Assembly (NCBI GenBank): GCA_030017685.1
Contig: JASEHH010000003.1
Coordinates: 25,319-89,318 of the forward strand
DNA length: 64,000 bases
From: Thermodesulfobacteriota bacterium
GTDB lineage: Bacteria > Desulfobacterota > BSN033 > UBA1163
Direction of reading: 5' to 3'
The notes beneath the pieces were generated by a model. The model worked only from the letters and a program-made list of their open reading frames with translations, did not search any database and was not told where the DNA came from. Below, piece after piece: positions 1,753 through 62,218 of the stretch (position 1 is its first letter; every line of letters begins with the position of its first letter). The translations under genes were made by a program, and so were the position numbers.

Positions 1753-2163
1753 TCTGAAAATAACCTCCCGAAACAACGGATAGGACTTCACCCCGATGGT
1801 CATCACCTCTCCCTCCCTGAAGGAAGAGAACTCCAATCTCTCACCTTTAAAAATCATGGCCTGCTGGGTCATAGGAGAAACAAAAAAAGAGAAATATTCC
1901 ATCTCCAGAGCATCCGTCTTTACTTTGATCTTCCCGCCTTCAACCATCACATCCTTTTCCGTTGAGGGAAGGCCAGCCCCATAGGATTCGAATCGGGTCT
2001 CGACAGGCTTAATCTTCTTGCCGGAGGTGATGAGGAAGTATCCGGTGACAGGTGTCCTATCGACGGAATGAATGTAGTGAAATTCAAACCCCTCGCCCGG
2101 AGAAACTTTTCTTAAAAAAACGATCAGGCCATCCCTCTTATTCCTCACCTCAAGGGTGTCCAC
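1738..2163 (-). CDS. DUF1850 domain protein (TAXI-TRAP operon-associated)
   Basis: 141-aa ORF between the TAXI receptor and the fused permease. DUF1850 proteins typically occupy this position in TAXI-TRAP operons. It overlaps the permease start by 15 nt. Confidence 0.55.
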   Translation of the reverse strand: MDTLEVRNKRDGLIVFLRKVSPGEGFEFHYIHSVDRTPVTGYFLITSGKKIKPVETRFESYGAGLPSTEKDVMVEGGKIKVKTDALEMEYFSFFVSPMTQQAMIFKGERLEFSSFREGEVMTIGVKSYPLFREVIFRHGSR

Positions 2164-11410: not shown

Positions 11411-11951
11411 ATTTAAATTCGAAGCACTAAATCCGAAATCGCTTAAACTCTAAACACTAAACTCTAAACCCTAAACAAATCCAAAAGCTAAAACTCAAAA
11501 AGTTATTTCGATTTCTCAACAATTGAACCGAATATCTTCGTGAGCTCTGTTGCTTCCTTGATCAAGTTCTGTTTTTCCATCATTTGCTCTTCTTTTGGTT
11601 CGGTTAACTCAAGCCAGTACCCACTCTCTTTTGCCTCTTTTCTTGATATCTTTATTCTCATTACAAAATCCTTTCTACTTAATGCTTCTTCGCCCTCAAT
11701 ATAGTTGGCCCCCACTGAGCCAGAAGCCTTGATAAGCTGTCTTGCGTCTTCTATATTGCTTAAAGTCTTTGGTAAATTCTTCACGTAGTTTCTTACCATT
11801 TTGGCAAATCTAAGCGTCCTGTCCCTTAAATCATACGGTTTTGAGTTTTGTGTTTTGGATATTTGAGCTTGTTTAGAGTTTAGGATTTCGAGTTTAGGGT
11901 TTAACATCTTCGTTTCATCCCGTCTTGGCGTGATTTCAATATTCGGATTTT
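11411..11951. repeat. approximately 540-bp repeat unit, copy 1 (near-identical to 50230..50767), carrying a four-helix-bundle gene
   Basis: Direct nucleotide comparison of 11411-11951 with 50230-50767 shows near identity (a few substitutions, one N/S difference in the encoded protein). This includes about 90 bp 3' and about 45 bp 5' of the ORF. The ends are built from ctaaa(c)-type repeats that are approximately inverted relative to each other. Confidence 0.8.
11503..11907 (-). CDS. four-helix-bundle protein (TIGR02436-like, the 23S rRNA intervening-sequence protein family)
   Basis: 134 aa translating to MLNPKLEILNSKQAQISKTQNSKPYDLRDRTLRFAKMVRNYVKNLPKTLSNIEDARQLIKASGSVGANYIEGEEALSRKDFVMRIKISRKEAKESGYWLEL. 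This is the typical four-helix-bundle pattern. A second copy lies at 50320..50724. Confidence 0.75.
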   Translation of the reverse strand: MLNPKLEILNSKQAQISKTQNSKPYDLRDRTLRFAKMVRNYVKNLPKTLSNIEDARQLIKASGSVGANYIEGEEALSRKDFVMRIKISRKEAKESGYWLELTEPKEEQMMEKQNLIKEATELTKIFGSIVEKSK

Positions 11952-11960
11952 CTCATTAAG

Positions 11961-13166
11961 CTAATCTCTTTCTTTCAGTTTCGATAGGGCAATGGAGCGA
12001 TTCTTCTCGACGGTAGAAAATTCCTTTACCTTTTTTGCCAAAGTGGGAGGCCATCCCCCCCGTTCAAGAATCCTTGCCAGCATCCAGGGGTTCAAATCAG
12101 AAACTTCCATCCACTTTCCGGCGTTCTTGATGAACTCATCCAATGCCTTTCGATTCGGATCTCCCTTCAAGGGATACTTCTCTTTCATCTCGGTCTTAAT
12201 TTTGGCTACATGGTCACTCCCGTAGATAGCCTCTAACTCCTCCCGTTGAGCATAAGCAAAGAGAGCTTCCTCCACTCTGGCCAGCTCTGCATCAATCTCT
12301 CCAATTAAAATCCCCTTCTTTTCTTTCAGTTCCACATATCGGTTGACCAGATTCACCCCTTCTTCCTGAAGATATTCATTCGGGGGAAGACTCTCCGCCA
12401 CAATCCGATGCCTCCGTTTTGGACAGAGACTCTGATAATCACACCAGCTACAGAGGGGGCTCTCTTGGGGAGAAAAATCCCTGTCTGACTCGATCTTCTT
12501 GATGAGTTCCATCGTCTCCTGCCGGAGTCGTTGAAGCTCCTCAGGAGTTCTCAGAGATTGAACCTCCACATCGAAGGCAAGATAGTGCCAGATCAATTTG
12601 ATTTCCTGTATATCTTTCCATTTTCCCTCCACCCCCATTTGATAGAAGGCCAGCTGTCGGTCTGATTGGACGTCTCCCTGGGTCGGGAGTCTACTGGAGG
12701 TTTTATAATCGTGAATCTCGAGGATAGAGTGGTCCGAGAGTGCAAGACGATCAATCACTCCCCTGATCCAGTACCCCTTTTCCTCTTCGAGGGGAAAATA
12801 GATGGTCTCTTCAAGGCCCAATGTCCTTCCCTGGTCAAAGGGATAATAACGTTTGTAATAGTCTGTGATGCATTTTTCTCCCAGACGGCGATAGTCTTCC
12901 GCATGGTATTCCTTTCTGATGATCTGAACCGACTCACTCCAGTTCTTCTCCCAGCATTGATGATAAAAGGCAAGAAGTTCTTCGAGGGTATTGAGTTTGG
13001 TCATCTTCAGGTCACGGTAGAGCTTTTCCAGGGCATCGTGAACCCTCGAACCCATGAAAGCCTCAATCCCTTCCGTATCCATCTTAATTTTCTGGATGTA
13101 GTGAAGTCGATATTGATAGGGACAGGTTTGATAGGTGGAGAGCTGGGAATGGGAATACGCTGGCAT
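11961..13166 (-). CDS. PD-(D/E)XK nuclease superfamily protein, Cas4/RecB-like with Fe-S cysteine motif
   Basis: 401 aa. The N-terminal SQLSTYQTCPYQYRLHYI plus the C-proximal CSWCDYQSLC give the 1+3 cysteine pattern of Cas4/AddB-type nuclease domains. The core contains D/E..K-like residues. Confidence 0.65.
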   Translation of the reverse strand: MPAYSHSQLSTYQTCPYQYRLHYIQKIKMDTEGIEAFMGSRVHDALEKLYRDLKMTKLNTLEELLAFYHQCWEKNWSESVQIIRKEYHAEDYRRLGEKCITDYYKRYYPFDQGRTLGLEETIYFPLEEEKGYWIRGVIDRLALSDHSILEIHDYKTSSRLPTQGDVQSDRQLAFYQMGVEGKWKDIQEIKLIWHYLAFDVEVQSLRTPEELQRLRQETMELIKKIESDRDFSPQESPLCSWCDYQSLCPKRRHRIVAESLPPNEYLQEEGVNLVNRYVELKEKKGILIGEIDAELARVEEALFAYAQREELEAIYGSDHVAKIKTEMKEKYPLKGDPNRKALDEFIKNAGKWMEVSDLNPWMLARILERGGWPPTLAKKVKEFSTVEKNRSIALSKLKERD

Positions 13167-13276
13167 CCGTTACCTCATCTATGCTTTGCAGAAGGTTATA
13201 ACTATTTTTAACAAGAATTCCTCCCCCTGTCAAAAAACATTTCTCCTTGAAACATGAAGCGGGAGTGTGATACGAG

Positions 13277-14068
13277 ATGGATAGGATGGACTCAGAAAAA
13301 AAGTTGGAAAAACTACAGGAAAAAATAATTCGGTGCCGAAAATGTCCAAGGCTGGTCAATTATTTAAAAGAGGTTCAGGACCGCAGACCCAGGCGATACA
13401 GGGAATGGAACTACTGGTCTAAACCCCTTCCCAGTTTTGGAGACCCGAAGGCCCGGGTTCTTATCATCGGTCTTGCGCCTGCGGCCAATGGGGGAAACCG
13501 GACAGGAAGAATGTTTACAGGGGATCGGAGTGGAGAGTGGTTGTTTGAAGCCCTTCACCGTTTTGGCTTTGCCAATCAACCCAATTCGGCTAGACGGGAT
13601 GACGATTTTGCCTTAAAGGATTGTTACATCACAGCAACGGTCCGCTGCGCTCCTCCGGATAATAAACCCCTGCCCGAAGAGATTGAGAACTGCCGACCTT
13701 ATGTCTTAGAGGAACTCAATCTTTTAAAAAATGTGAAGGTCCTTATTCCGCTGGGACAGATCGCTTTTACACAAACCCTAAAATCTCTAAGGTTAAAAGG
13801 ATACGATATTCCCCCTTTATCTTTTGGCCATGGGAAGTTCTATTCGATTTCAAAACTCCGAACTCCTGACTCCCTGCCTTCGCCGAAACGCTACGTGCAG
13901 GCAGGCGAACTCCGAACTGTCACTCTAATTACAACCTACCACCCGAGCCAGCAGAATACCTTAACCGGCAAACTCACCAGACCGATGTTCTATAAGATCT
14001 TTAAAATGATTTGCTCCGAACTCCCCGCCTACCGGACGGGCAGGCGAGCTTATAGCTCCGAACTTTAA
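13277..14068 (+). CDS. uracil-DNA glycosylase, family 4/5 (Fe-S type), carrying two in-frame repeat-element insertions
   Basis: Translation contains CRKCPRL, GLAPAANGGNRTGRMFTGDRSG and the C-terminal HPS motif (TTYHPSQQ). Two palindromic elements with duplicated flanks are embedded in-frame at 13854-13918 and 14013-14064. Confidence 0.75.
   Translation: MDRMDSEKKLEKLQEKIIRCRKCPRLVNYLKEVQDRRPRRYREWNYWSKPLPSFGDPKARVLIIGLAPAANGGNRTGRMFTGDRSGEWLFEALHRFGFANQPNSARRDDDFALKDCYITATVRCAPPDNKPLPEEIENCRPYVLEELNLLKNVKVLIPLGQIAFTQTLKSLRLKGYDIPPLSFGHGKFYSISKLRTPDSLPSPKRYVQAGELRTVTLITTYHPSQQNTLTGKLTRPMFYKIFKMICSELPAYRTGRRAYSSEL
13854..13918. mobile_element. MITE/REP-like palindromic element (CCTGCC...GGCAGG core) with 11-bp target-site duplication AACTCCGAACT, inserted in-frame in the UDG gene
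   Basis: The sequence reads aactccgaact | cctgactccctgccttcgccgaaacgctacgtgcaggcaggcg | aactccgaact. Element plus duplication add 54 bp (18 codons) and the reading frame is preserved (adds LRTPDSLPSPKRYVQAGE). Confidence 0.55.
14013..14064. mobile_element. second palindromic element with 10-bp target-site duplication GCTCCGAACT at the UDG C-terminus
   Basis: The sequence reads gctccgaact | ccccgcctaccggacgggcaggcgagcttata | gctccgaact, then ttaa. The 42 bp added equal 14 codons in frame, and the stop lies immediately after. Confidence 0.5.
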
Positions 14069-14071
14069 TTT

Positions 14072-14338
14072 ATGATCGTTCACCTTCCCATTGAAGACTG
14101 GCTCGATCTTCACACCTTCTCGCCGAAAGAGATCCCTTCTCTTTTGGAGGAATACCTTGGGGAATGTCAGAGGAAGGGGCTTAAAGAGGTTCGGATCATC
14201 CACGGAAAAGGTAAGGGAGTGCAACGAACTATCGTCCACTCCCTTCTCGAGAAAAATCCTCTTGTCGAATCCTACAGACAGGCTCTCCCTGAGGCAGGTT
14301 CATGGGGTGCTACGATTGTCACTTTGAGAAGACAATAG
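14072..14338 (+). CDS. Smr domain protein
   Basis: 88 aa containing the Smr-like block VRIIHGKGKGVQRTIVHSLL. It starts 4 nt after the UDG stop. Confidence 0.6.
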   Translation: MIVHLPIEDWLDLHTFSPKEIPSLLEEYLGECQRKGLKEVRIIHGKGKGVQRTIVHSLLEKNPLVESYRQALPEAGSWGATIVTLRRQ

Positions 14339-14380
14339 ATTCGGATTGTAAAAAAAAGAATTTTATGGTAGCATTTTTCA

Positions 14381-14536
14381 AAATTTGATGGTCTCGTAAA
14401 AAGTCCCAAAAGTGGTCATTGCGTGCGGAGCGAAGCTATCTCGTATCTCATAAGTGCTTGATTTTATGAAATTGCTTCATCGCTACGCTCCTCTCAATGA
14501 CATGTGGTTGGACTTTTTACGATTTCATCAAATTTA
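14381..14536. repeat. approximately 155-bp extended imperfect inverted repeat upstream of the peptide ABC operon
   Basis: The left arm aaatttgatggtctcgtaaaaagtcccaaaagtggtcattg and the right arm caatgacatgtggttggactttttacgatttcatcaaattt are near reverse complements. The centre (ggagcgaagc...gcttcatcgctacgctcc) is also self-complementary. Confidence 0.45.
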
Positions 14537-14583
14537 ATAATCTTCATTTTCCCTTTTAAAAGGTGAAAAGAAAGGGGGTTTTT

Positions 14584-16128
14584 ATGAAACGACTATTCTG
14601 CTTAATGTTAATTCTCATCCCATCTCTTCTCTTCCTCCCGGTTTCCAGCCCGGCTAAAGTACCCGGAGGAACCGTTACTTATGCGGCCGGTGCAGATCCG
14701 GACCGGCTTGATCCGGCAAATGCAGAGAGCAACCCCTCAGAGGCGGTAAACCGGATGATGTACGAGAACCTCGCCAAATTTGATGAAAAACTGAAGATCG
14801 TCCCCGGGCTCGCCACCAAGTGGGAACAGTCGAAAGATGGCATGACATGGACCTTCTTTCTAAGAAAGGGAGTCAAGTTTCATGACGGCACGCCTTTCAA
14901 TGCAGAGTCGGTCAAAGTTTTTATTGAAAGGATGATTGGACCTGAGAAACCTTCCCGGGCAGGTCTTTATGTCCCCTTTGTGAATTCGGTAGAGATTGTA
15001 GATGACTTCACCATCAAGATCCATTTGAAAACTCCCTTTGCTTTTTTCCTTAACAACCTAGCCCACAGCGCATCAGGAATCATCAGCCCCACGGCTCTGA
15101 AGACTCATGGAAAGGATATTGCCCGTAAACCTGTGGGGACCGGTCCATTCAAGTTTGTCGAATGGATTCATGGCGACCACATCACCCTTGTTCGAAACGA
15201 TGATTACTGGGGAGGGAAGCCCAATCTCGACAAGATCATTATCAGGACGGTCAAGGAGGACAGCGCCCGGGTCATGATGCTCCAGTCAGGGGATGCCCAG
15301 CTGATCGTCCGAATTCCTCCGGAAGACGTTCCCAGACTTGAAAAGGATGCGAAGATTAAACTCGATTCTACGGAAACGCTCCGTGCTCTATACATCGGGA
15401 TCAACTGCTCCAAAAAACCTTTCACAGATGTTCGAGTCAGACAAGCACTCAATTATGCGGTCGATAAAGAGGCCATCGTCAAAAACATCTATCAGGGAAG
15501 GGCATTGACCAGTTCAGGAATTGTTGCTCCTTTGACCACCGGTTACTTTCCGATTCAAGGATACCCCTATGATCCGGAAAAGGCGAAAAAACTCCTCGCT
15601 GAAGCGGGGTATCCCAGTGGCTTCAAAGCAAAGCTCTGGAGCCCTCAGGGCCGTTACCCCAAAGACTTTGAGATGGCTCAAGTGGTTCAACAACAGTTAA
15701 AAAAGGTGGGAATTGACTGCACCCTCGACACAATGGAATGGGCGGCCTATTTAGCCGCAACCCGTAAAGGGCCTGAAGAAAATGAATCCGAACTCTTCCT
15801 GCTTGGATGGGCCCCCTCCACGGCAGAAGCTCGCTGGATTCTCTATCCCCTCTTTACCACCGAACAATGGGTGCCGAAGGGGAACAATCGAAGCTTCTTT
15901 TCAAATAAAGAGTTTGACGAGTTGGTCACCAAATTTACCCGGGCGACGAACAAAGCGGAAATGGATCAATATCTGAAGGCCGCCCAGGAATTGCTGGTCA
16001 AGGAAGCGCCTTCCATCTTTATCCTGGTGACCAAAGAAACCATCGGGATGAGTAAAAAACTCCAGGGCGTGATCAACTCCCCGCTGGAATTGACTTACTT
16101 TGATCATCAGACCTATCTTGAGAAATGA
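14584..16128 (+). CDS. ABC transporter substrate-binding protein, peptide/nickel family 5 (DppA/OppA-like)
   Basis: About 514 aa with a signal peptide and family-5 SBP-like composition. An AAAGGGGG RBS precedes the ATG at 14584. The track start at 14563 is a GTG. It is followed by two permeases and two ATPases. Confidence 0.8.
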   Translation: MKRLFCLMLILIPSLLFLPVSSPAKVPGGTVTYAAGADPDRLDPANAESNPSEAVNRMMYENLAKFDEKLKIVPGLATKWEQSKDGMTWTFFLRKGVKFHDGTPFNAESVKVFIERMIGPEKPSRAGLYVPFVNSVEIVDDFTIKIHLKTPFAFFLNNLAHSASGIISPTALKTHGKDIARKPVGTGPFKFVEWIHGDHITLVRNDDYWGGKPNLDKIIIRTVKEDSARVMMLQSGDAQLIVRIPPEDVPRLEKDAKIKLDSTETLRALYIGINCSKKPFTDVRVRQALNYAVDKEAIVKNIYQGRALTSSGIVAPLTTGYFPIQGYPYDPEKAKKLLAEAGYPSGFKAKLWSPQGRYPKDFEMAQVVQQQLKKVGIDCTLDTMEWAAYLAATRKGPEENESELFLLGWAPSTAEARWILYPLFTTEQWVPKGNNRSFFSNKEFDELVTKFTRATNKAEMDQYLKAAQELLVKEAPSIFILVTKETIGMSKKLQGVINSPLELTYFDHQTYLEK

Positions 16129-16160
16129 TGCCTATCCCTCAATGGGTATGAGGCTACCAG

Positions 16161-16200
16161 AGGGCGACTGAAATCGACGAGTCGCCCTTTTATTTATTTT
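16161..16200 (+). terminator. intra-operon Rho-independent terminator/attenuator after the SBP gene
   Basis: agggcgact-gaaatcgacg-agtcgccct followed by ttttatttatttt. Confidence 0.5.
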
Positions 16201-16212
16201 CCAGGGAGATGG

Positions 16213-17133
16213 ATGGGACGTTACATCTTAAAAAGATCCCTCATGCTTCTGCCTGTCCTTTTGGGAGTTTCGCTGGTCTCCTTTTCCCTGCTCCACATGG
16301 TCCCCGGAGACCCGGCGGAGTTGCTGGCAGGAGAGGAAGCCAATCCAGAATTCATCCAGGCCCTCCGGAAGGAATACGGGTTAGACCAGCCCCTTTACAT
16401 TCAATACTTTCATTTCATCTCCCATGTTGTCCGGGGGGATTTCGGAATCTCTATCCGGAATCGGGAACCTGTCATTAAGCTTCTCAAGGAACGATTCCTC
16501 TTCACCCTCCAGCTTTCTTTTCTCTCGATCCTGATTGCCTGCTTCATCGGTCTGATCGCCGGGGTGATTTCTTCAACCAAGCAGTATTCCCTTTTTGATA
16601 ACATGAGCATGGTAGGCGCCCTTTTCGGTATCTCGATGCCCATCTTCTGGTTCGGTCTGCTCCTGATGCTTGTATTCTCTGTGCATCTGAGATGGTTCCC
16701 GGCCGGTGGAAAAGGAACGATCCTGCACCTCATCCTTCCAGCCATTGCCCTCGGGGCCGCCTCGTCCGCGGTCATCGCCCGCATGACCCGGGCCTCCATG
16801 CTGGAGGTGGTGAGGCAGGATTACATCCGGACTGCCCGGGCCAACGGTCTTCGCGAATTCATCGTCATCTACAAGCATGCTCTGAAAAATGCCATGATCC
16901 CTATCATCACCGTCTTCGGCCTCGAATTCGGATACATGCTCGGCGGGGCTGTATTGACCGAAACGGTCTTTTCATTACCTGGAGTGGGAAGGCTGATGGT
17001 GGAAGGGATCTTCCAACGAGATTACCCCGTCGTTCAAGGTTCGATGCTTCTGGTCGCAACGACCTTCGTCGTGGTCAATCTTCTAACCGATATTGCTTAT
17101 GCTTTTTTTGACCCGAAAATAAGATATGAATGA
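16213..17133 (+). CDS. peptide ABC transporter permease (DppB/OppB-like)
   Basis: 306 aa polytopic membrane protein in an ABC operon context. Its stop overlaps the next gene by 8 nt. Confidence 0.8.
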   Translation: MGRYILKRSLMLLPVLLGVSLVSFSLLHMVPGDPAELLAGEEANPEFIQALRKEYGLDQPLYIQYFHFISHVVRGDFGISIRNREPVIKLLKERFLFTLQLSFLSILIACFIGLIAGVISSTKQYSLFDNMSMVGALFGISMPIFWFGLLLMLVFSVHLRWFPAGGKGTILHLILPAIALGAASSAVIARMTRASMLEVVRQDYIRTARANGLREFIVIYKHALKNAMIPIITVFGLEFGYMLGGAVLTETVFSLPGVGRLMVEGIFQRDYPVVQGSMLLVATTFVVVNLLTDIAYAFFDPKIRYE

Positions 17134-17992
17134 GGCAAAAAGAACGAAAACGATAAGCCAGACGGAAGAGGTCTGGCGGAGACTCAAACGAAACCGTACT
17201 GCCATCATCGGAGGGATGATCGTTTTTCTCTTCGTCTTTGTCGCCATTCTGGCTCCCTGGATTTCTCCTTACCCCCCCAATGAGGGAGATCTGGCGAAAC
17301 GGCTGAAACCTCCTAGCAAGGAACATCTTCTGGGGACGGATGCTCTTGGAAGGGATCAACTGAGCCGGATCATCTTTGGAGCCCGGATTTCCCTTCAGAT
17401 TCAGGTGGTCGCTGTTTTCATCGCTCTCATCATCGGAACGCTCCTTGGCATGGTCGGAGGTTACTATGGGGGAACACTCGACAACCTGATCATGAGACTG
17501 ATGGATATTCTCCTCGCCTTTCCGGGGATCTTCCTCGCCATCTCCATCATCGCCGTTCTGGGTCCCGGCCTGACCAATCTGATGCTGGCCGCGGGGATCT
17601 ACTCGATTCCCCAGTTCGCGAGAATTGCCAGGGGATCTGTCCTTTCTTTAAAAGAAAAGGAGTTCATCGAGGCAGCCCGGGCAGTGGGGGAAAACGACTT
17701 GAATATCCTCTTCCGTTATCTGCTGCCGAACTCCATGGCCCCCCTCATTATTCAGACTACCCTTCGAATGGCCACCGTTCTCCTCACTGCATCCGGCCTG
17801 AGCTTCCTTGGTCTCGGAGTTCAACCCCCCACTCCGGAATGGGGCGCCATGCTTTCTACCGCGAGAGCCTATATGATCACCGCTCCTCACGTGGCCACTG
17901 TTCCGGGGCTGGCGATCATGCTGGTGGTGATGGGCTTCAACCTCTTCGGTGACGGTCTGAGGGACTCGCTTGATCCGAGGTTAAGAGACTGA
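17126..17992 (+). CDS. peptide ABC transporter permease (DppC/OppC-like)
   Basis: 288 aa membrane protein in the same operon. Confidence 0.8.
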   Translation: MNEAKRTKTISQTEEVWRRLKRNRTAIIGGMIVFLFVFVAILAPWISPYPPNEGDLAKRLKPPSKEHLLGTDALGRDQLSRIIFGARISLQIQVVAVFIALIIGTLLGMVGGYYGGTLDNLIMRLMDILLAFPGIFLAISIIAVLGPGLTNLMLAAGIYSIPQFARIARGSVLSLKEKEFIEAARAVGENDLNILFRYLLPNSMAPLIIQTTLRMATVLLTASGLSFLGLGVQPPTPEWGAMLSTARAYMITAPHVATVPGLAIMLVVMGFNLFGDGLRDSLDPRLRD

Positions 17993-23300: not shown

Positions 23301-23720
23301 ATGAGCGCAGAGGGAATGGCAAAGTATAAAGAGGCTGGACTAAAACTGACGCCCCAGCGACTGGCGATCCTGAAGTATCTTGAAGGGAATAAGGAACATC
23401 CGTCCGCAGATGAAATCTATAAGGCGGTATCAAAAAAGTTTCCTACCATGTCCTTCGCCACCGTATATAACACCCTGGAGACATTAAGAAGGCATGGTCA
23501 GATCATGGAACTCAACTTCGACCCCTATAAGAAACGCTTCGATCCTAATCCCAAACCCCATCATCACGTCATCTGTGTCAGGTGCCAGAAAATTCTCGAT
23601 GTTCAAAATCACTTTTCTCTCAAACCGCCAAAAATCGAATCTGAGGAGTTTGAAATTATCGGCAGCCACATAGAATTTTATGGGGTCTGTTCAAAGTGCA
23701 AGGATAGGTTAGGGGCTTAA
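23301..23720 (+). CDS. Fur family transcriptional regulator (PerR-like by context)
   Basis: Translation shows a Fur-family fold (LKLTPQRLAILKYL, HHHVICVRCQKI, CSKC) with two CxxC pairs. It lies upstream of rubrerythrin and peroxidases. An alternative start exists at 23316. Confidence 0.7.
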   Translation: MSAEGMAKYKEAGLKLTPQRLAILKYLEGNKEHPSADEIYKAVSKKFPTMSFATVYNTLETLRRHGQIMELNFDPYKKRFDPNPKPHHHVICVRCQKILDVQNHFSLKPPKIESEEFEIIGSHIEFYGVCSKCKDRLGA

Positions 23721-23789
23721 AAAAGCAGAAAACTCATCCCTGTCAATAAAAATTTAATCAACAAATAAAGAGAGAGGAGGAATGTCCTT

Positions 23790-24287
23790 ATGTCGAAGAC
23801 AGAACAGTTTTTAAAGGAGGCATTTGCAGGAGAATCTCAGGCAAACCGAAAATATCTTGCCTTTGCAGGAAAAGCCGATCAGGAGGGTTATCCTCAGGTG
23901 GCGCGTCTTTTCCGTGCCGCAGCCGAGGCAGAGACCGTCCATGCCCACAGTCATTTAAGGGTTCTGGGGGGGATCAAAAGCACCAAAGAGAACCTCCAGG
24001 AGGCTATAGCGGGTGAAACCCATGAGTTTAAGAGCATGTATCCGGAGATGATCGAAGCAGCTAAATCAGAAGGCCAAAAAGATGCGGTTAGAAGTTTCAA
24101 CTTTGCCAATGAGGTTGAGAAGGTCCATGCCCAGCTTTATCAGAAACTGTTAGACGGTCTGGGAAAACCTCAGGAGAATTATCCCTATTATATCTGCCCG
24201 GTCTGTGGATACACGGCTGAAAAAGAGCCTCCCGGAACCTGCCCGGTCTGTGGAGCCAAAGGAGAGATGTTCAAAAAAATAGAATAA
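23790..24287 (+). CDS. rbr: rubrerythrin (ferritin-like diiron domain plus C-terminal rubredoxin-like CxxC...CxxC)
   Basis: Translation shows E...EAETVHAHSH and a C-terminal CPVCGYT...CPVCGA. A GAGGAGG RBS lies 9 nt upstream. Confidence 0.85.
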   Translation: MSKTEQFLKEAFAGESQANRKYLAFAGKADQEGYPQVARLFRAAAEAETVHAHSHLRVLGGIKSTKENLQEAIAGETHEFKSMYPEMIEAAKSEGQKDAVRSFNFANEVEKVHAQLYQKLLDGLGKPQENYPYYICPVCGYTAEKEPPGTCPVCGAKGEMFKKIE

Positions 24288-24305
24288 CCGGAAAAGGAGG
24301 TCTTA

Positions 24306-24821
24306 ATGAAAGAACGAACAGGAATTATAACCATGAAGGGAAACCCCTTAACTCTAATCGGAAACGAGCTCAAAGTCGGTGACGTCGCACCTGACTTTGT
24401 CGCCTTGAACAATGATCTCTCCCCAATAAAATTTTCATCGTTTCGTGGCAAAATCTGCATTCTCTCGTCAGTGCCTTCCCTTGACACACCGGTCTGTGAT
24501 ATGGAGACTCGAAGATTTAATGAAGAGGCAAGCCGTCTGGGTCCGGATGTGATGATTTTAACCATCAGCATGGACCTCCCCTTTGCGCAGAAACGCTGGT
24601 GTGCGGCAAGCGGAGTGGATAAGGTTCAAACCCTGTCAGATCATCGCGATGCCTCTTTCGGCACCTCATATGGGGTGTTGATTAAAGAGCTGCGGCTCCT
24701 TGCCAGGGCTGTCTTTCTGGTGGATCGGAAAGGGACCCTTCAATATATCCAGATCGTCAAGGAGATGACGAGCGAGCCGGACTATGAAGCTATCCTGAAT
24801 GCCTTAAAAAAATTGACATGA
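24306..24821 (+). CDS. tpx: thiol peroxidase (Tpx, atypical 2-Cys peroxiredoxin)
   Basis: Translation shows GDVAPDF, the peroxidatic-Cys region VPSLDTPVCD and a resolving-Cys region RWCAA. An AAGGAGG RBS is present. Confidence 0.8.
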   Translation: MKERTGIITMKGNPLTLIGNELKVGDVAPDFVALNNDLSPIKFSSFRGKICILSSVPSLDTPVCDMETRRFNEEASRLGPDVMILTISMDLPFAQKRWCAASGVDKVQTLSDHRDASFGTSYGVLIKELRLLARAVFLVDRKGTLQYIQIVKEMTSEPDYEAILNALKKLT

Positions 24822-24833
24822 GGGGGTAAAGAT

Positions 24834-25409
24834 ATGAAGAAGATCTATTTAACAATGCCTGTCCTCACCATTCTGCTTCTCACACTGGTGTCTCCCGTTT
24901 TACCTGCCAACAAGCCGCCGGCAAAAGGTGAGACCTTACCTGTATTCAATCTTCCGATTCCTAAAAGTCCCGCTGAAAAAGGTTATCTGGGTCTCTCCGG
25001 CGATGGCCTTTTTAAAATTCCACAGATCAAAGCCAGGGTGGTGATTGTCGAAATCTATAGTATGTATTGTCCTTATTGTCAGAAGGATGCTCCCGGGATC
25101 AACGAATTCTATCAACTAATCGAGAAAAGTTCGAATCTTAAATCCAAGATTAAAATGATCGGAATCGGTGCGGGAAATACATCCTTTGAAGTGGAGGTAT
25201 TTAAGAAGACCTATCAGGTCCCGTTTCCGCTCTTTCCGGATAAGGATTTTACAATCCATAAGGCTTCCGGGGAAGTAAGGACACCCTACTTTATCGTCAT
25301 TAAGATCAATGATGACGGGACTCACCAGATCGTCCATGCCCAGTTAGGGGATTATCCAGGGGCCGAACCATTTCTGGAGATTGTCCTTAAGGCTTCGGGA
25401 CTTAAATAA
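24834..25409 (+). CDS. secreted thioredoxin-fold thiol-disulfide oxidoreductase (TlpA/ResA-like)
   Basis: Signal peptide plus the active-site region YSMYCPYCQKD. Confidence 0.6.
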   Translation: MKKIYLTMPVLTILLLTLVSPVLPANKPPAKGETLPVFNLPIPKSPAEKGYLGLSGDGLFKIPQIKARVVIVEIYSMYCPYCQKDAPGINEFYQLIEKSSNLKSKIKMIGIGAGNTSFEVEVFKKTYQVPFPLFPDKDFTIHKASGEVRTPYFIVIKINDDGTHQIVHAQLGDYPGAEPFLEIVLKASGLK

Positions 25410-25419
25410 GGAAGAGAGG

Positions 25420-26028
25420 ATGAAAAAGATAATAAGGGTTGACCTTGTCTTGATCTCAATGGCCATTTCAATCGGGGCGTTTATTCCGGCAGTTTATGGC
25501 GCATCGGACGCCTTTAAGGAGAATATTTATAAGGTGGGCGCCCTTAAACCGGTTGACAGTAAACTCAATGTGAAGGTCGGAGATCGTGCGCCTGACTTCA
25601 CCCTTCCCTCTGTATCCGGAGAGAAGGTTTCTTTGAGCCAGTATCGCGGAAAGAAGAACGTGGTCCTTTCCTTTGTCCCTGCGGCCTGGACCCCTGTCTG
25701 CTCAGATCAGTGGCCTGGTTATAATATCATAAAAGATGTTTTTCAACAGAACGATGCCATCCTCTTCGGAATTACGGTGGACAATATCCCCACCCTTTTT
25801 GCCTGGACTAACCAGATGGGAAAATTATGGTTCTCTGTGCTCTCAGATTTCTGGCCTCATGGGGCCGTGGCAAAAAAGTATGGTGTCTTGCGCTCCGATG
25901 GAGTCTCAGAGAGGGCGCTTTTTGTAATCGATAAGAAAGGAACCCTTGGATATATTGACGTCCACGACATCAACAAGCGGCCTCCCCTCGAAGACCTGGT
26001 GAGTGCATTGGAGAAACTTAAAAGATAG
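25420..26028 (+). CDS. secreted peroxiredoxin (AhpC/TSA-redoxin family)
   Basis: Signal peptide, GDRAPDFTLPS, peroxidatic-Cys region FVPAAWTPVCSDQ. An ATG at 25420 has a purine-rich RBS. The track ORF starts upstream at 25381, inside the previous gene. Confidence 0.65.
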   Translation: MKKIIRVDLVLISMAISIGAFIPAVYGASDAFKENIYKVGALKPVDSKLNVKVGDRAPDFTLPSVSGEKVSLSQYRGKKNVVLSFVPAAWTPVCSDQWPGYNIIKDVFQQNDAILFGITVDNIPTLFAWTNQMGKLWFSVLSDFWPHGAVAKKYGVLRSDGVSERALFVIDKKGTLGYIDVHDINKRPPLEDLVSALEKLKR

Positions 26029-34532: not shown

Positions 34533-34940
34533 TCAGTTCAGAAGCCGTTTGACGATCGGGACCTTGAAGAACTGGACTCCTTCTTCCTTCAGGATTACTT
34601 CCTCCTCTGTCGTGGCCGTTCCCCGGATGTTTCTCTTTTCTTCTTCTCCATGGTGGATTTTGAGCGCCTCCTGGGCAAATTTGGCTCCCACATCTTCGAA
34701 GTGTTTGTCCACATACTCATGAATTAACTGCAAGGCCTGCTGAGCAACCTCCTCTCCCTTCTTTCTCTCTCCATCGCTCTTCTTAATCATGAATGGAGAA
34801 AAGGTTTTCACCACCTGGGTATCATCGCAGATGGGGCAGTTGATGATGCCGGCAGACTGCTGCTCCTCAAAGCAGGAGCTGTCTTTAAACCAGCACTCAA
34901 AAAGATGGCCATTGGAACAGATGAGATCGTAAGCAATCAT
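34533..34940 (-). CDS. DUF1178 family zinc-ribbon protein
   Basis: MIAYDLICSNGHLFECWF...CPICDD matches the DUF1178 pattern. The start at 34940 is an internal Met of the track ORF. Confidence 0.5.
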   Translation of the reverse strand: MIAYDLICSNGHLFECWFKDSSCFEEQQSAGIINCPICDDTQVVKTFSPFMIKKSDGERKKGEEVAQQALQLIHEYVDKHFEDVGAKFAQEALKIHHGEEEKRNIRGTATTEEEVILKEEGVQFFKVPIVKRLLN

Positions 34941-35054
34941 TCTGACACCCCAATATAATTTAACACCTTCCTCCAAATTTTGGCAAACTATTTCTCGCAA
35001 TTGCAAAGGAGAAAAAAAAGGGGTAATATTTAATATAAAAGAAAGGAGGCAACC

Positions 35055-35606
35055 ATGAGAAAAAAGTTATTCCATCAGGGGATTTTCATATTTCTCTTGT
35101 TACTGCTCCTTCTCCCCCTTTCCAATGCGGAAGCGAAGAAAAAGGTGGAGTTGGTTGGGAGAGAGATACTTAATTTTACCCTACCCTCCACCCAGGATCG
35201 TGTGATCACTTACGCCGATGAGTATTATGGCAAGTACCACCTGGTCATCACCTTTTTCCCTGCGGCCTTCACACCCATCTGAACAGGCGAGATGGAGGGC
35301 CATCAGAGGAACCTCTACCTCTATGAGCGCTTCAACGCCCGGGTCCTGGGCGTCAGTAGGGACGATGTGATAACTTTAAAATACTTTGCCAATAGCCTCG
35401 ATTTAACCTTCCCTCTCCTTTCCAATGTCACCTCTTTTCTGGGTGTCAGTGTCGATGCTCAACCTGATGGTAGGCCCATCTTCAGCAGGCGGACGATTAT
35501 CATCGACAAGGCAGGTATCATTCGTTATGTGAGGGATGGTTCGCCGGATTTCAAGGATATCCTCCTCTTCCTTAAAAAACTGAACCAGAAAGGAGGAAAA
35601 CCATGA
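35055..35606 (+). CDS. secreted PrxQ/Bcp-type peroxiredoxin with in-frame TGA at the peroxidatic Cys codon (candidate selenoprotein, or otherwise a nonsense pseudogene)
   Basis: Track ORFs 35055..35282 and 35292..35606 are in the same frame, separated only by TGA at 35280-35282. The translation ...VITFFPAAFTPI[TGA]TGEM...ARVLGVSRDD...FPLLSN aligns with PrxQ FFPxxFTPVCTTE...GVSxDS...FPLLSD, placing the TGA exactly at the catalytic Cys. A hairpin gatgg-aggg-ccatc starts 9 nt downstream. Confidence 0.55.
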
Positions 35607-36214
35607 AGAGAATAAGTCTTCTGTTCCTGTGTTTGTTTTTAATGATGGCCTGGCTTTCCGGATGCGCAACCTTTGAGACAGAGAAAAAGGCTGTTCCCTA
35701 TCGGTTGACCGCCCAGGGAACGGTGATCTGGGAGGACGAGTTCGAGTTTTTACCTCCCCCTCCAGACTGGAAACTCCTCCGGGTGGAGGGAGAAGGAGGG
35801 GACATTAACTTCGGGTTTACGCGATCAGACCCCGGAACCTTCCCCTCGATGACTTCATTCGCTTACGATGAGGAACCCTTCGGCTGCTCAACCAAATTTG
35901 AAGACAGGGAAAGAGAGTTTTTCAAACGGTTTCTCTTTAATGCCATCCTCCAGTTTCAGGTATTAGAGAAAAAGAAGACTCAGGTGCTTGGTGGAGAAGG
36001 ACTGGAGGTGGTCGTTGAGGGAAAGGACCCGGTCAAAAAAGAGAAAGTGAGGGCCAAAGTCGTCTTTGGCAAACGGGGCGAACGGATCGTGGGTTTCTAT
36101 ATCACCCAGTGGAGGCATTTGGACGGGACCTATGACCTCTCAGCTTTTGAAGTCTTTGACAGATTTGTGAAGTCTTTTAAGCTTCTCAAAAAATCTTTTT
36201 ATGAAACCCTATAG
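35603..36214 (+). CDS. hypothetical lipoprotein
   Basis: Signal peptide with lipobox LSGC. Translationally coupled to the Prx gene (ATGA overlap). Confidence 0.5.
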   Translation: MKRISLLFLCLFLMMAWLSGCATFETEKKAVPYRLTAQGTVIWEDEFEFLPPPPDWKLLRVEGEGGDINFGFTRSDPGTFPSMTSFAYDEEPFGCSTKFEDREREFFKRFLFNAILQFQVLEKKKTQVLGGEGLEVVVEGKDPVKKEKVRAKVVFGKRGERIVGFYITQWRHLDGTYDLSAFEVFDRFVKSFKLLKKSFYETL

Positions 36215-41107: not shown

Positions 41108-41147
41108 TAAATCCACCAAGCCAAAGGCTCGGTGGATTTTTTATTTT
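41108..41147. terminator. Rho-independent terminator hairpin at the 3' end of the oxidoreductase gene
   Basis: aaatccaccaagcc-aaag-gctcggtggattt flanked by T-rich sequence (ttttttatttt). Confidence 0.45.
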
Positions 41148-42346
41148 AATTGATTGAAATCGAACCCCTCTTTCAAGATGGAATTCTTGATCTCCTTGAT
41201 GTCCACCTCCTTTTCGATGGCACTGAGTAGCTCTGCCCTTCCTCTGGTCTCCCCAAGCAGGATACAACCGACGATTTTATCCTCCTTGAATGTGACCTTG
41301 CAGTAGCTGCATTTCTCACGATCACTTCTCACCACACACTCGAACTTCCCCTCTGCGTCGATTTCCCCTGCGGAGGTGAGATCAATTCCTACCACCTTAA
41401 GGGTATTGGAAACAACCGTGCCTTCATAGGACTCATTTCCTCCTGCCATATTGACTCCGGCAATCTCGCCCTGTTTCTGGGCAGCAGGCCAGATCCCATA
41501 AACTCGGCCCCGATGTTCTGCCACATCTCCAGCCGCAAAGATGTCTTTGGCCCTCGTTTCCAGCCCGTCATTGACCAGAATTCCATTCTTCATCTCCAGC
41601 CCCATCTCCTTGGCCAGTTGAATATTCGGCCTTACCCCTGCAGAGATGATCGCCATCTGGCCTTCTACCACCCTGCCATCCTTAAGGCGGACCCCCTCAA
41701 CCTTCTCTTTCCCCAGAATCTCCTCGGACTGTCCATTGAGAAAGAAGAAGAAACCCATGGTTTCCATCTTTGCCTGAAGGATCTGGGCACCCTCCGGGTC
41801 CATCTGTCTTGGAAGAATTCTGGGATTATGCTCAATCACTGCCACCTTAATGGACCGTCTCAATAAGGCTCCGCCTGTCTCCAAACCGACCAGCCCCCCT
41901 CCAATGAGGATCGCCTGGCTGATCTTCTCTGAGAATGCTTTCATTCCAATCGCATCCTTCATCGTTCGAAGGGTAAAAACTCCTTCCTTTTCTGTCCCCT
42001 TGATGGGAGGCACAAAGGCGTTCCCACCTGTGGCTATAAGCAGGCTATCATAAGAATAAGTTTTCCCCTGTTTGCTCAAGACCTCTTTTTTGTCCGGACG
42101 AACCTCAACAACCGGCTCTTCCAGATGGAGGGAGATGTTTTTCCCCTGATAAAACTCTTTGGTGTGGATGGTAATCTCCTTGATCGCCACCTCTCCTGCA
42201 ACCAGTTCCGGGAATCGAACCCGGTAGTAAAAGGGATAACCTTCCCCTGTAAAGATGTGGATTTCACCCTTTGGGTCTCTTTCTCTGATCCTGACCGCTG
42301 CCCTTGCGCCTGCCACTCCGTTTCCGATGATGAGATACCGTTTCAT
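41141..42346 (-). CDS. FAD-dependent pyridine nucleotide-disulfide oxidoreductase (NADH oxidase / rubredoxin reductase-like)
   Basis: Translation shows the N-terminal GNGVAGARAA FAD site, a second GGGLVGLE NAD site, and the C-terminal cysteines CSYC...C. Confidence 0.65.
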   Translation of the reverse strand: MKRYLIIGNGVAGARAAVRIRERDPKGEIHIFTGEGYPFYYRVRFPELVAGEVAIKEITIHTKEFYQGKNISLHLEEPVVEVRPDKKEVLSKQGKTYSYDSLLIATGGNAFVPPIKGTEKEGVFTLRTMKDAIGMKAFSEKISQAILIGGGLVGLETGGALLRRSIKVAVIEHNPRILPRQMDPEGAQILQAKMETMGFFFFLNGQSEEILGKEKVEGVRLKDGRVVEGQMAIISAGVRPNIQLAKEMGLEMKNGILVNDGLETRAKDIFAAGDVAEHRGRVYGIWPAAQKQGEIAGVNMAGGNESYEGTVVSNTLKVVGIDLTSAGEIDAEGKFECVVRSDREKCSYCKVTFKEDKIVGCILLGETRGRAELLSAIEKEVDIKEIKNSILKEGFDFNQLK

Positions 42347-42831: not shown

Positions 42832-43230
42832 ATGATGAAATTATTAACCCTCATCATATCTTTTTCGATGGCTATTGGATGTTTAACCCCTGCCTTTTCT
42901 GCCGAGGCGCCAAGGATAACCAAAGAGGAGTTGAAGGCTTTGCTCGGCAATCCGGATCTCGTCATCATCGATGTCCGTTATGGCAGGGATTGGACCAACA
43001 GTGATATAAAGATCAAAAGCGCCGTAAGAGAAGACCCGGATGATTTAAAATCCTGGGCAAACAAATACTCACCGGATAAGACCATTGTCCTTTACTGAAC
43101 CTGACCCAGTGAAGGGACCAGTGCCAGTCTGGCACAGGAACTAATTGAGATGGGATTTAAGAAAGCCTTCGCCCTCAAAGGCGGCTGGAAGGAATGGTCT
43201 AAAGCAGGCTATCCGATAGAGAAGAAGTGA
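42832..43230 (+). CDS. secreted single-domain rhodanese-like protein interrupted by in-frame TGA codons at the expected active-site Cys (candidate selenoprotein or pseudogene)
   Basis: Signal peptide with lipobox-like AIGC. The translation ...DKTIVLY[TGA]T[TGA]PSEGTSASLAQELIEMGFKKAFALKGGWKEWSKAGYPIE matches the rhodanese pattern (VVLYC......AA..L...GF.......GG...W..AG.P) with a TGA at the Cys position (43096-98) and another at 43102-04. The hairpin gtgcca-gtc-tggcac (43121-43135) lies 17-23 nt downstream. Confidence 0.4.
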
Positions 43231-44042
43231 TATTCTCGCCCATCATTCTCAATGCTGGATCGTCACTAAAAGTTTCTCTGGATCAGCCCATTGATGTTGC
43301 ATTAACCCTTTCGATGGCTGACCTGAAAGCGCTGTTTATCGACCCGGAGAGGGGCCAGGTCCAATATCATGCGATCCGCAACTCTGAGAAGTTTGAAAAG
43401 TATAAAGACCTCACGAAAGGATTGCAATCCTTCGATCTCCAATCCTTAAAAGACCGCGGACAGAGACTTGCCTTCTGGGTTAATATTTATAATGCAGCCG
43501 TGATCCACGGGGTCATCGAGCTGGGGTTAAAGCATTCGGTCAAAGAAGTTTATAATTTTTTTGATCGAATCGTCTATGAGATCGGAGGATATCGTTTCTC
43601 GTTAAACGATATGGAGCATGGCATCCTTCGGGGCAACCGGAGGCCACCCTACCGGCTTTTAAGACCCTGGGGTAAAAATGATCCACGTTTAGCATTCGCC
43701 ACCCTGCCGATGGATGCAAGAATCCACTTCGCATTGGTCTGTGGCGCAAGGTCCTGTCCACCCATTGGATTTTATGAATCCGGGCAGATCGACTTTCAGC
43801 TTCAACTTGCTGCAGAGAGCTTCATCAATAGTTCCCAGGTCAGGATCCTTCCGGAGGATAATTCGATCTTGATTTCAATGATTTTCAAATGGTATAAGGC
43901 AGATTTTGGGGGAAATGATCGAGCGATTGTGGATACGATTCTCAATTTCCTCGATGAGGGGGAGAAAAAGAATTTTTTAAGAGAAAATAAGAATCGAGTT
44001 CGTATTAAGTATCAACCCTATGACTGGAATCTGAATCAATAA
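43227..44042 (+). CDS. DUF547 domain protein
   Basis: 271 aa. The block FWVNIYNAAVIHGVIE...GILRG...RIHFALVCGARSCPP is characteristic of DUF547. GTG start overlapping the rhodanese stop. Confidence 0.55.
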   Translation: MIFSPIILNAGSSLKVSLDQPIDVALTLSMADLKALFIDPERGQVQYHAIRNSEKFEKYKDLTKGLQSFDLQSLKDRGQRLAFWVNIYNAAVIHGVIELGLKHSVKEVYNFFDRIVYEIGGYRFSLNDMEHGILRGNRRPPYRLLRPWGKNDPRLAFATLPMDARIHFALVCGARSCPPIGFYESGQIDFQLQLAAESFINSSQVRILPEDNSILISMIFKWYKADFGGNDRAIVDTILNFLDEGEKKNFLRENKNRVRIKYQPYDWNLNQ

Positions 44043-50229: not shown

Positions 50230-50767
50230 TTAAATCCGAAGCACGAAATCCGAAACCGCTTAAACTCTAAACACTAAACTCTAAACCCTAAATAAATCCA
50301 AAAGCTAAAACTCAAAAAGTTATTTCGACTTCTCAACAATTGAACCGAATATCTTCGTAAGCTCTGTTGCTTCCTTGATCAAACTCTGTTTTTCCATCAT
50401 TTGCTCTTCTTTTGGTTCGGTTAATTCAAGCCAGTACCCACTCTCTTTTGCCTCTTTTCTTGATATCTTTATTCTCATTACAAAATCCTTTCTACTTAAT
50501 GCTTCTTCGCCCTCAATATAGTTGGCCCCCACTGAGCCAGAAGCCTTGATAAGCTGTCTTGCGTCTTCTATATTGCTTAAAGTCTTTGGTAAATTCTTCA
50601 CGTAGTTTCTTACCATTTTGGCAAATCTAAGCGTCCTGTCCCTTAAATCATACGGTTTTGAGTTTTGTGTTTTGGATATTTGAGCTTGTTTAGAGTTTAG
50701 GATTTCGAGTTTAGGGTTTAACATCTTCGTTTCATCCCGTCCTGGCGTGATTTCAATATTCGGATTT
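50230..50767. repeat. approximately 540-bp repeat unit, copy 2 (near-identical to 11411..11951), inserted between rfbB and rfbD
   Basis: Nucleotide-level near identity with copy 1 across the ORF and both flanks. Confidence 0.8.
50320..50724 (-). CDS. four-helix-bundle protein (TIGR02436-like), second copy
   Basis: 134 aa. Identical to the 11503..11907 product except for one residue (N/S). Confidence 0.75.
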   Translation of the reverse strand: MLNPKLEILNSKQAQISKTQNSKPYDLRDRTLRFAKMVRNYVKNLPKTLSNIEDARQLIKASGSVGANYIEGEEALSRKDFVMRIKISRKEAKESGYWLELTEPKEEQMMEKQSLIKEATELTKIFGSIVEKSK

Positions 50768-62050: not shown

Positions 62051-62218
62051 TCTATTCCTTCAACTTTTAAATCTCAAAATGATGAAATTATCTTCAATGA
62101 CCCGGCCCCATTTTAAAGATAGACGAACAGGAGGGTATTGTCAACTCTGATATTGGCACTCCGATATTGGGTATAATTTTGCTTGAGTCCTTCAACAAAT
62201 TAGCCTATATTGGTAGCC

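Follow-up and report, generated by a model that had tools for sequence, protein, structure and literature searches.

The 64,000-nt stretch analysed here, referred to as the window, comes from contig JASEHH010000003.1 of a Thermodesulfobacteriota bacterium. Two open reading frames (ORFs) on its + strand, 35055..35282 and 35292..35606, lie in the same frame, with a TGA codon at 35280-35282 as the sole break between them. An earlier, sequence-only reading of this DNA had described the same pair of ORFs interrupted only by this TGA, and all of its coordinates were found to be right. Comparison with homologous sequences makes it very probable that 35055-35606 is a single gene for a secreted, presumably periplasmic, peroxiredoxin (Prx) with one selenocysteine (Sec), in which the TGA specifies Sec. 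Gene and product are referred to as Sec-Prx, and the features of the coding region are as follows.

35042..35049, + strand: Shine-Dalgarno sequence AAAGGAGG, 5 nt upstream of the Prx ATG
35055..35606, + strand: Sec-Prx coding sequence, 183 codons with UGA-Sec as codon 76; predicted AhpC/TSA-family 1-Sec peroxiredoxin
35055..35135, + strand: predicted Sec-type (secretory) signal peptide MRKKLFHQGIFIFLLLLLLLPLSNAEA, ~27 residues, with probable cleavage after A-E-A
35259..35282, + strand: active-site motif P69-A-A-F-T73-P-I-U76 (PxxxTxxU) with the Sec codon TGA at 35280-35282; aligned with FFPLAFTGIC of AhpE
35487..35489, + strand: codon of Arg145, the conserved peroxiredoxin active-site Arg, in the motif R-R-T-I-I-I-D; aligned with the R of AhpE NRGTFVVD

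With the TGA read as cysteine (Cys), the protein matches the Pfam family AhpC-TSA (PF00578) over residues 34-159 with an E-value of 2.6e-19 and 69.8 bits (cutoff 26), covering the complete profile (positions 1-124 of 124), and it also matches the Redoxin family. This full-length match runs across the TGA, indicating that a single domain spans it. The local sequence, FFPAAFTPI-TGA-TGEM, places the TGA at the peroxidatic position of the PxxxTxxC motif, where distant homologues carry Cys; the proposal that the TGA replaces the catalytic Cys codon is thereby confirmed. In the conceptual translation, the peroxiredoxin has no Cys at all, and U76 is its only Cys/Sec position.

The N-terminus combines a basic n-region, a hydrophobic core (Kyte-Doolittle mean up to 3.75) and a c-region of small residues, and the N-termini of homologues resemble it; from this layout, export of Sec-Prx to the periplasm is predicted. 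The same strong Shine-Dalgarno sequence, AAAGGAGG, precedes both true starts, at 35055 for the peroxiredoxin and at 35603 for a lipoprotein gene downstream. Inspection of the sequence upstream of the internal ATG at 35292 revealed no Shine-Dalgarno sequence.

Conservation of the TGA codon and Cys homologues

Homologous loci were collected from one genome per species, yielding 80 loci of 51-90 % identity that align through the stop. They originate from metagenome-assembled genomes of Syntrophaceae, Geobacteraceae, Desulfuromonadales, Syntrophales, Syntrophorhabdales and unclassified Thermodesulfobacteriota. In every one of the 80, the peroxidatic codon is TGA and the frame is intact on both sides, which is far beyond chance. 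The comparison of this codon among orthologues, suggested by the sequence-only reading, thus speaks for that reading, with no frameshifted or decayed copy found.

The codon alignment comprises 78 unique sequences, all of which retain the TGA together with invariant P69, T73 and R145, the latter encoded by six different Arg codons. Numerous further columns on each side of the TGA show one and the same amino acid throughout while their synonymous codons vary freely. Such amino-acid conservation combined with free synonymous turnover on both sides indicates that both halves are translated and under purifying selection.

Protein databases present the gene in pieces. When the conceptual full-length Sec-Prx was searched against 5.8 billion proteins, 542 matches were returned. 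The best 120 of these are 102-111 aa long and span only the C-terminal 55-57 % of the query, which indicates that automated gene prediction cuts the gene at one and the same point in hundreds of assemblies. For the C-terminal ORF, HMMER run exhaustively against 1.84 billion cluster representatives detected only 70 relatives, mostly fragments that start directly after a stop. The fragments carry the JGI label "peroxiredoxin Q/BCP", and in hundreds of public assemblies the two pieces of the gene stand as "hypothetical" or "redoxin domain" proteins. Because the best 120 matches are all fragments of ~104 aa and no NCBIfam cutoff is reached, a dedicated selenoprotein model for this clade would repair many annotations.

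More distant full-length homologues carry Cys at the Sec site, among them P0280 (FFPKAFTSGC), P0303 (FYPKAFTGGC), P0301 (FFPLAFSGVC) and P0242, and AhpE likewise has Cys at the aligned position (FTGIC). The site therefore shows the Sec/Cys pairing that is the classical mark of a selenoprotein. P0242 (186 aa) is the only full-length relative with more than 50 % identity. In this protein, the PxxxT part of the motif is lost (FIANAFGPNC) and GHQRNLYLYE is retained, so that it may represent a degenerate or neofunctionalised Cys paralogue.

RNA constraint and structure downstream of the UGA

Among 72 distinct homologues, the first 66 nt counted from the UGA show 90 % identity, far more than conservation of the protein would demand. 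Codons +4 to +24 have a normalised synonymous-codon entropy of 0.28, compared with 0.84 in the remainder of the gene (Mann-Whitney p = 2.6e-10), with a clean trough centred on codons +12 to +21. Within this region, Leu+13 is encoded by CTC in 68/68 sequences, Arg+16 by CGC in 63/65 and Ala+19 by GCC in 62/62. The low entropy 3' of the TGA points to an overlapping RNA element at the place where a bacterial selenocysteine insertion sequence (SECIS) sits. The RNA features of this region are as follows.

35284-35341, + strand: candidate SECIS, a long imperfect hairpin of ~58 nt with a minimum free energy (MFE) of -25.5 kcal/mol and z = -2.5
35301-35325, + strand: apical part of the candidate SECIS, CAU-bulged C-AGAGG / CCUCU-AUG
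35310-35317, + strand: apical loop of the candidate SECIS, AACCUCUA, 27 nt after the UGA
35291-35304, + strand: small hairpin GAUGG-AGGG-CCAUC, contained in the long hairpin as its 5' arm; an alternative local fold

A stable SECIS-like structure downstream of the UGA, as the sequence-only reading had expected, is therefore present in the conserved hairpin 35284-35341. Six divergent homologues folded independently adopt the same hairpin architecture, with z-scores of -2.1 to -6.3. In the apical and middle stem, bases have changed on both arms, from AGAGG/CCUCU to GCGG/CCGC in the homologous loci L060, L064 and L065 and to AGAGA/UCUCU in the L049 group. Explicit counting of pairs in the long hairpin showed 89.7 % of cells to be paired and, at pair 30-39, six double changes from G-C to A-U. 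RNAalifold was less informative here than folding single sequences and counting pairs explicitly.

According to Fig. 2 of PMC13188914, a bacterial SECIS is constrained to a loop of 3-9 nt, an upper stem of 4-16 bp, a G within the first two loop positions, a UGA-to-loop distance of 16-37 nt and an MFE <= -7.5 kcal/mol. The Sec-Prx hairpin can be paired in two registers. Register A corresponds to the MFE structure; with a loop of 8 nt and 5+3 bp it occurs in 63/72 sequences, and at 27 nt from UGA to loop and -25.5 kcal/mol it fits all constraints except the G rule. Register B (AGAG / GAAC loop / CUCU) has a 4-nt loop and 4 bp, occurs in 55/72 sequences and fits the constraints including the G rule, at a spacing of 26 nt and -18.5 kcal/mol in context; the loop G is present in 51 of the 55 sequences that have the register (51/72 overall). 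When the hairpin is held against the bacterial SECIS definition, as the sequence-only reading had proposed, spacing, loop size, stem and MFE thus agree, whereas the G is found in register B and missing from register A. The element resembles the bacterial consensus in being a stem-loop directly 3' of the UGA within the coding region, with an upper stem of 4-8 bp; it differs in its unusual length of ~58 nt and in a constraint that reaches codon +24.

The sequence-only reading had pointed to the small hairpin as lying where a SECIS would be expected. That hairpin does exist, with 85 % of its cells paired, and forms part of the larger conserved structure, yet it is not the best candidate. It lies 13 nt from the UGA, outside the range of 16-37 nt, is broken in the divergent L060/L064-L066 group, costs 8.4 kcal/mol relative to the MFE structure and leaves the constraint at codons +12 to +24 unexplained. 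The functional SECIS is more likely the long hairpin 35284-35341 than this 14-nt one.

Probable selenocysteine decoding, enzyme family and alternative explanations

Several observations weigh against Sec at codon 76. Neither selA, selB, selD nor the tRNA-Sec gene selC was found within the 64 kb, where nearly all ORFs >=130 aa and both edge-running ORFs were annotated, and a tRNA scan of the window returned no tRNA gene. On the RNA side, an Rfam search matched neither a SECIS nor any other family, whether at the gathering threshold or with E-values up to 10. The default RNAalifold consensus is weak, with 4 bp only. Beyond the changes listed above, covariation in the long hairpin is sparse, because the region is 90 % identical. 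Moreover, register A, which is the covariation-supported one with the loop AACCUCUA, has the G required of a bacterial SECIS in 0/63 sequences, and register B is without covariation support.

Use of Sec in this genome is indirectly supported by a second selenoprotein gene in the window, a member of a curated family.

42832-43230, + strand: second selenoprotein gene, rhodanese-like, with the motif LY-U-T-U-P; TGA codons at 43096-43098 and 43102-43104; 7.5 kb from Sec-Prx
43118-43138, + strand: rhodanese SECIS hairpin, stem GUGCCA/UGGCAC, G-U-N loop (GUC, 43127-43129)

This ORF had been noted before as a rhodanese-like frame with TGA at its active-site Cys; it exists, and it contains two in-frame TGA codons (a UxU motif) rather than one, reading ...TIVLY-TGA-ACC-TGA-CCC... 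With U read as C, it matches NCBIfam NF041203, the rhodanese_LYCAU (seleno)protein, at 178.8 bits (cutoff 115). The second TGA is the known Sec site of NF041203, and the first replaces the Cys of that model. Of the homologue clusters among database proteins, 94 stop at LYCx|, and the 21 that stop at LY| are the closest relatives. Comparison at the DNA level showed both TGAs and the downstream frame to be retained in three independent relatives (L081, L082 and L083). The hairpin is of consensus type and lies 28 and 22 nt after the two UGAs, both of which it presumably serves. The UxU form of rhodanese was already described in 2007 (PMC1976440). Scanning the window for the motifs U..G.[RKT] and GH[IVLM].[GN][AS] did not detect the rhodanese-like gene because its loop is UxUP; the gene came from listing short ORFs in the gap at 42.3-43.3 kb. 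A general search for ORFs that continue through a TGA produced 92 candidates, most of them noise.

The lineage is known for extensive use of Sec, and Sec-containing peroxiredoxins are on record in related bacteria. Table 3 of PMC1794560 lists 19 selenoproteins for Syntrophus aciditrophicus, 31 for Syntrophobacter fumaroxidans and 8 for Geobacter metallireducens, and each of the three sets includes a peroxiredoxin. Peroxiredoxin (PF00578) with the motif TxxU is given as a validated prokaryotic selenoprotein family in PMC13188914, is reported for these same three species (PMC1794560 Table 3; PMC13188914) and is counted with 43 occurrences in the Sargasso Sea data (PMC1088965). Sec-Prx shares with the catalogued proteins the Pfam family, the TxxU motif (T73-P-I-U76), the lineages and widespread Cys homologues; the likeness to catalogued members such as WP_011365628.1 is one of family, motif and taxa. 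Given the taxa involved, Sec-Prx most likely belongs to this same family. The enzyme type is thus already known in these anaerobic bacteria, and Sec-Prx is not new in kind.

Among solved structures, that of Mycobacterium tuberculosis AhpE is closest by sequence (E about 1e-12); BCP/PrxQ proteins of archaea and bacteria come next (E 1e-10 to 1e-11, with BCP at 2e-10). Over residues 7-137 of the mature Sec-Prx, the motifs FFPxAFTxI-C/U and R-x-T-F/I-V/I-D align with AhpE (Rv2238c; PDB 1xxu, 1xvw, 4x0x). Their homology is remote (only ~52 bits in phmmer), and both are without a resolving Cys, so that AhpE as the closest solved relative fits the absence of this residue from Sec-Prx. They differ in that AhpE is a Cys enzyme, whereas Sec-Prx has Sec, a signal peptide and an anaerobic Thermodesulfobacteriota host. 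The BCP/PrxQ proteins (PDB 2ywn, 3drn, 2cx3) form the second-best group, and many BCP proteins have a second Cys five residues past the peroxidatic position, which Sec-Prx does not.

The NCBIfam scan reached no peroxiredoxin equivalog cutoff. Sec-Prx scores 44.5 bits against a cutoff of 140 for NF006960 (thioredoxin-dependent thiol peroxidase) and 41.3 against 260 for NF053650, both BCP/PrxQ equivalogs. The earlier description of a secreted PrxQ-like protein accordingly holds as far as a peroxiredoxin with a predicted signal peptide and an AhpC-TSA match across the TGA is concerned, whereas the label "PrxQ/Bcp-type" appears approximate: an AhpE-like 1-Cys peroxiredoxin is the best match, slightly ahead of PrxQ. 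The comparison drawn earlier with PrxU of Eubacterium (Peptoclostridium) acidaminophilum does not extend to kinship. PrxU is an experimentally verified precedent for Sec at the peroxidatic position, but it represents a different subfamily (NF040737), for which Sec-Prx scores 24.2 bits against a cutoff of 270; the model has 233 positions, and the best-aligned region is AhpC/2-Cys-like.

These features suggest how the enzyme may be made and how it may act. Translation would start at ATG 35055, with the strong Shine-Dalgarno sequence ahead, and reach the UGA at codon 76, where the hairpin 35284-35341 in the mRNA would act as bacterial SECIS and recruit SelB.GTP.Sec-tRNA(Sec), leading to Sec insertion instead of termination. 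The signal peptide would then direct the protein across the inner membrane. The U76 selenolate, activated by Thr73 and Arg145 in the PxxxTxxU...R pocket, would attack a peroxide, with H2O2, an organic hydroperoxide or peroxynitrite as candidates, and yield selenenic acid. Because Sec-Prx has no other Cys, recycling would require an external reductant, as with 1-Cys peroxiredoxins such as AhpE. AhpE itself is cytoplasmic and is recycled by mycoredoxin/mycothiol.

The alternative that survives best concerns this last part: Sec-Prx could be a true selenoprotein with a role other than peroxide reduction, for instance as a periplasmic thiol/selenol-disulfide oxidoreductase or in selenium/sulfur trafficking together with the lipoprotein. 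The lack of a resolving Cys and of an identified periplasmic reductant would be compatible with such a role, as would a partner lipoprotein without known function, scores below every NCBIfam peroxiredoxin equivalog cutoff and a Se/S-carrier cluster near the homologous locus in L082. However, the full peroxidatic constellation PxxxTxxU...R is invariant, the nearest characterised relatives, AhpE and BCP, are bona fide peroxidases, and in relatives the gene is accompanied by Fur, rubrerythrin and Tpx. A role away from peroxides consequently appears unlikely.

Decoding of the UGA as Trp, Cys or Gly, through near-cognate read-through or a reassigned code, is far less probable still. Its one point of support is that a few remote homologues are printed in the database with Trp at the peroxidatic position: P0265 (FTPVW), P0272 (FTSVW) and P0283 (FTGGW). 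These are explained most simply as gene calls under genetic code 4 and are most likely further Sec-peroxiredoxins whose TGA was translated by the gene caller; if so, they represent a second sort of database artefact for selenoproteins. In the window, TGA is the ordinary stop of 19/58 long ORFs, which argues against a reassignment of the genetic code. With Trp or Gly as peroxidatic residue the enzyme would have no catalytic activity, conserved structured RNA directly after the UGA is a signature of SelB-dependent recoding, and the curated selenoprotein family member lies in the same window.

An equally improbable explanation assumes two products, with the UGA ending a secreted peptide of 75 residues and a C-terminal part of 104 residues started at ATG 35292. 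This ATG does lie 9 nt past the TGA, and hundreds of assemblies list the 104-aa ORF as a predicted gene. Yet it is the two flanking true starts that have AAAGGAGG, and 35292 has no Shine-Dalgarno sequence; the Met at +4 belongs to the conserved motif TGEMEGH; and the Pfam domain continues across the TGA. A separate C-terminal piece would lack both signal peptide and active site, and neither half is a known autonomous fold.

A pseudogene, that is, a peroxiredoxin killed by a nonsense mutation at its Cys codon, would need only one base change (TGC or TGT to TGA) and would appear in public annotations as fragments, as this locus does, but it can be dismissed almost entirely, given the TGA in 80/80 loci of several orders, the absence of additional stops or frameshifts, catalytic residues that are invariant amid strong synonymous turnover on each side, the nucleotide-level constraint 3' of the TGA, the conserved and coupled lipoprotein gene downstream and a divergence (51-90 % identity) that excludes 80 recent copies of one mobile pseudogene.

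Lipoprotein partner and gene neighbourhood

Two further features flank the Sec-Prx coding sequence.

35603..36214, + strand: lipoprotein, 203 aa, lipobox LSGC; ATGA coupling with the Prx stop at 35603-35606
35001..35029, + strand: candidate sigma-70-like promoter, putative and weak; TTGCAA at 35001-35006, 17-nt spacer, TAATAT at 35024-35029

The ATGA overlap through which the sequence-only reading had coupled the lipoprotein gene to Sec-Prx is confirmed, and the two proteins would be co-translated. The lipoprotein gene lies directly downstream of Sec-Prx in 67/80 loci, down to ~36 % identity. It has 646 homologues, every one annotated as hypothetical, and searches against Pfam and NCBIfam assigned it to no family. 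Its AlphaFold (AF2) model is of low confidence (pLDDT 45, pTM 0.42) because the alignment is shallow, with sequences of >=76 % identity only. The lipobox Cys is 94 % conserved; the sole other Cys, the internal Cys95, is 47 % conserved. A role of the lipoprotein as donor of the resolving Cys is ruled out by this poor conservation of its only non-lipobox Cys.

One may go further and regard Sec-Prx and its coupled lipoprotein as an uncharacterised module for peroxide defence in the periplasm of anaerobic Thermodesulfobacteriota that depends obligately on selenium. In it, a 1-Sec enzyme without resolving thiol would be recycled or anchored via the lipoprotein, a family with no known domain, and would be made with the help of a long non-consensus SECIS lacking the apical-loop G. 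We put this forward as a tentative proposal that is rather doubtful as a whole. What the locus adds to the catalogues is modest. A broad clade retains Sec strictly, the enzyme is predicted to be periplasmic and to have a 1-Sec site without internal thiol, a coupled lipoprotein is conserved alongside it, and the long candidate SECIS agrees with the consensus in an alternative register only. The signal peptide, the coupled lipoprotein and the SECIS of the present clade are not described in the available parts of the surveys of TxxU peroxiredoxins (PMC1794560; PMC1088965; PMC13188914). General knowledge of selenoproteins is unchanged by this gene. The clade does, however modest the addition, offer a defined system for asking why strict anaerobes spend selenium on periplasmic peroxide defence, and which reductant serves a 1-Sec peroxiredoxin outside the cytoplasm.

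In L081 and L082, Sec-Prx, lipoprotein and Sec-rhodanese lie in a single compact island, which comprises genes for a Fur-family regulator, rubrerythrin, Tpx, DUF1178, the split Prx, the lipoprotein, Macro, a flavoprotein disulfide reductase, the split rhodanese and DUF547. The window holds the same genes dispersed over 23.3-44 kb. At 23301-26028 (+), it contains an oxidative-stress cluster with a Fur-family (PerR-like) regulator, rubrerythrin and a thiol peroxidase of Tpx type (206 bits for NF001808), together with a signal-peptide-bearing, ResA-like protein of thioredoxin fold (24834-25409) and another AhpC/TSA protein; the counterpart of this cluster is contiguous with the Sec-Prx locus in L081 and L082. 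In L082 (GCA_026415035.1, JAOAHX010000024.1), positions 12957-17432 encode a YedE-like Sulf_transp protein, TusA, DsrE/TusA, a cysteine-desulfurase-like aminotransferase and a Se_S_carrier (PF11823), ~3 kb from the Sec-rhodanese and ~7 kb from Sec-Prx. This gene set may handle selenium or sulfur.

The Sec-rhodanese of the window is followed by a DUF547 gene at 43227-44042 (+), the start of which overlaps the rhodanese stop (GTGA). This position is kept in relatives (L081 10411-11268; L083 3821-4639). Upstream, at 41141-42346, lies a divergent flavoprotein disulfide reductase with a rubredoxin-reductase C-terminal domain. Flavoprotein reductase, Sec-rhodanese and DUF547 may constitute a conserved three-gene redox unit.

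On the other side of Sec-Prx, a divergent DUF1178 (zinc-ribbon) gene at 34533-35006 (-) adjoins it, as it does in 17/80 loci. The TTG listed as its start probably makes the gene too long, as the Pfam match sets in at residue 23; the true start is probably M23, at about 34940, which would give an intergenic promoter region of ~114 nt. TTGCAA and an A/T-rich box recur at equal distance upstream of many Prx homologues, and the TTGCAA-17 nt-TAATAT box may be the Prx promoter. It scores 8/12, under the threshold of the consensus scan, and this promoter/terminator scan returned no + strand promoter and no terminator for the Sec-Prx operon. A 7-1-7 repeat, TAATATT-T-AATATAA (35024-35038), was considered as a Fur/PerR operator but discarded, since homologues do not retain it in their upstream regions and the window shows no enrichment, with 9 matches against 4.5 expected, a number reached in 7/100 shuffles. 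It is more likely the -10 region.

Elsewhere in the window, two "23S rRNA-intervening sequence protein" genes (PF05635; 134 aa) at 11503-11907 (-) and 50320-50724 (-) are 99 % identical (133/134) although ~39 kb apart, and the pair is a recent duplication or a small mobile cassette. Two ORFs absent from the ORF list run off the ends of the window. The one at 62204-64000 (+) encodes an alpha-amylase-family-like protein of at least 599 aa, and the one at 3-1787 (-) a TRAP-type fused permease of at least 595 aa, beside DUF1850 and an NMT1-like binding protein.

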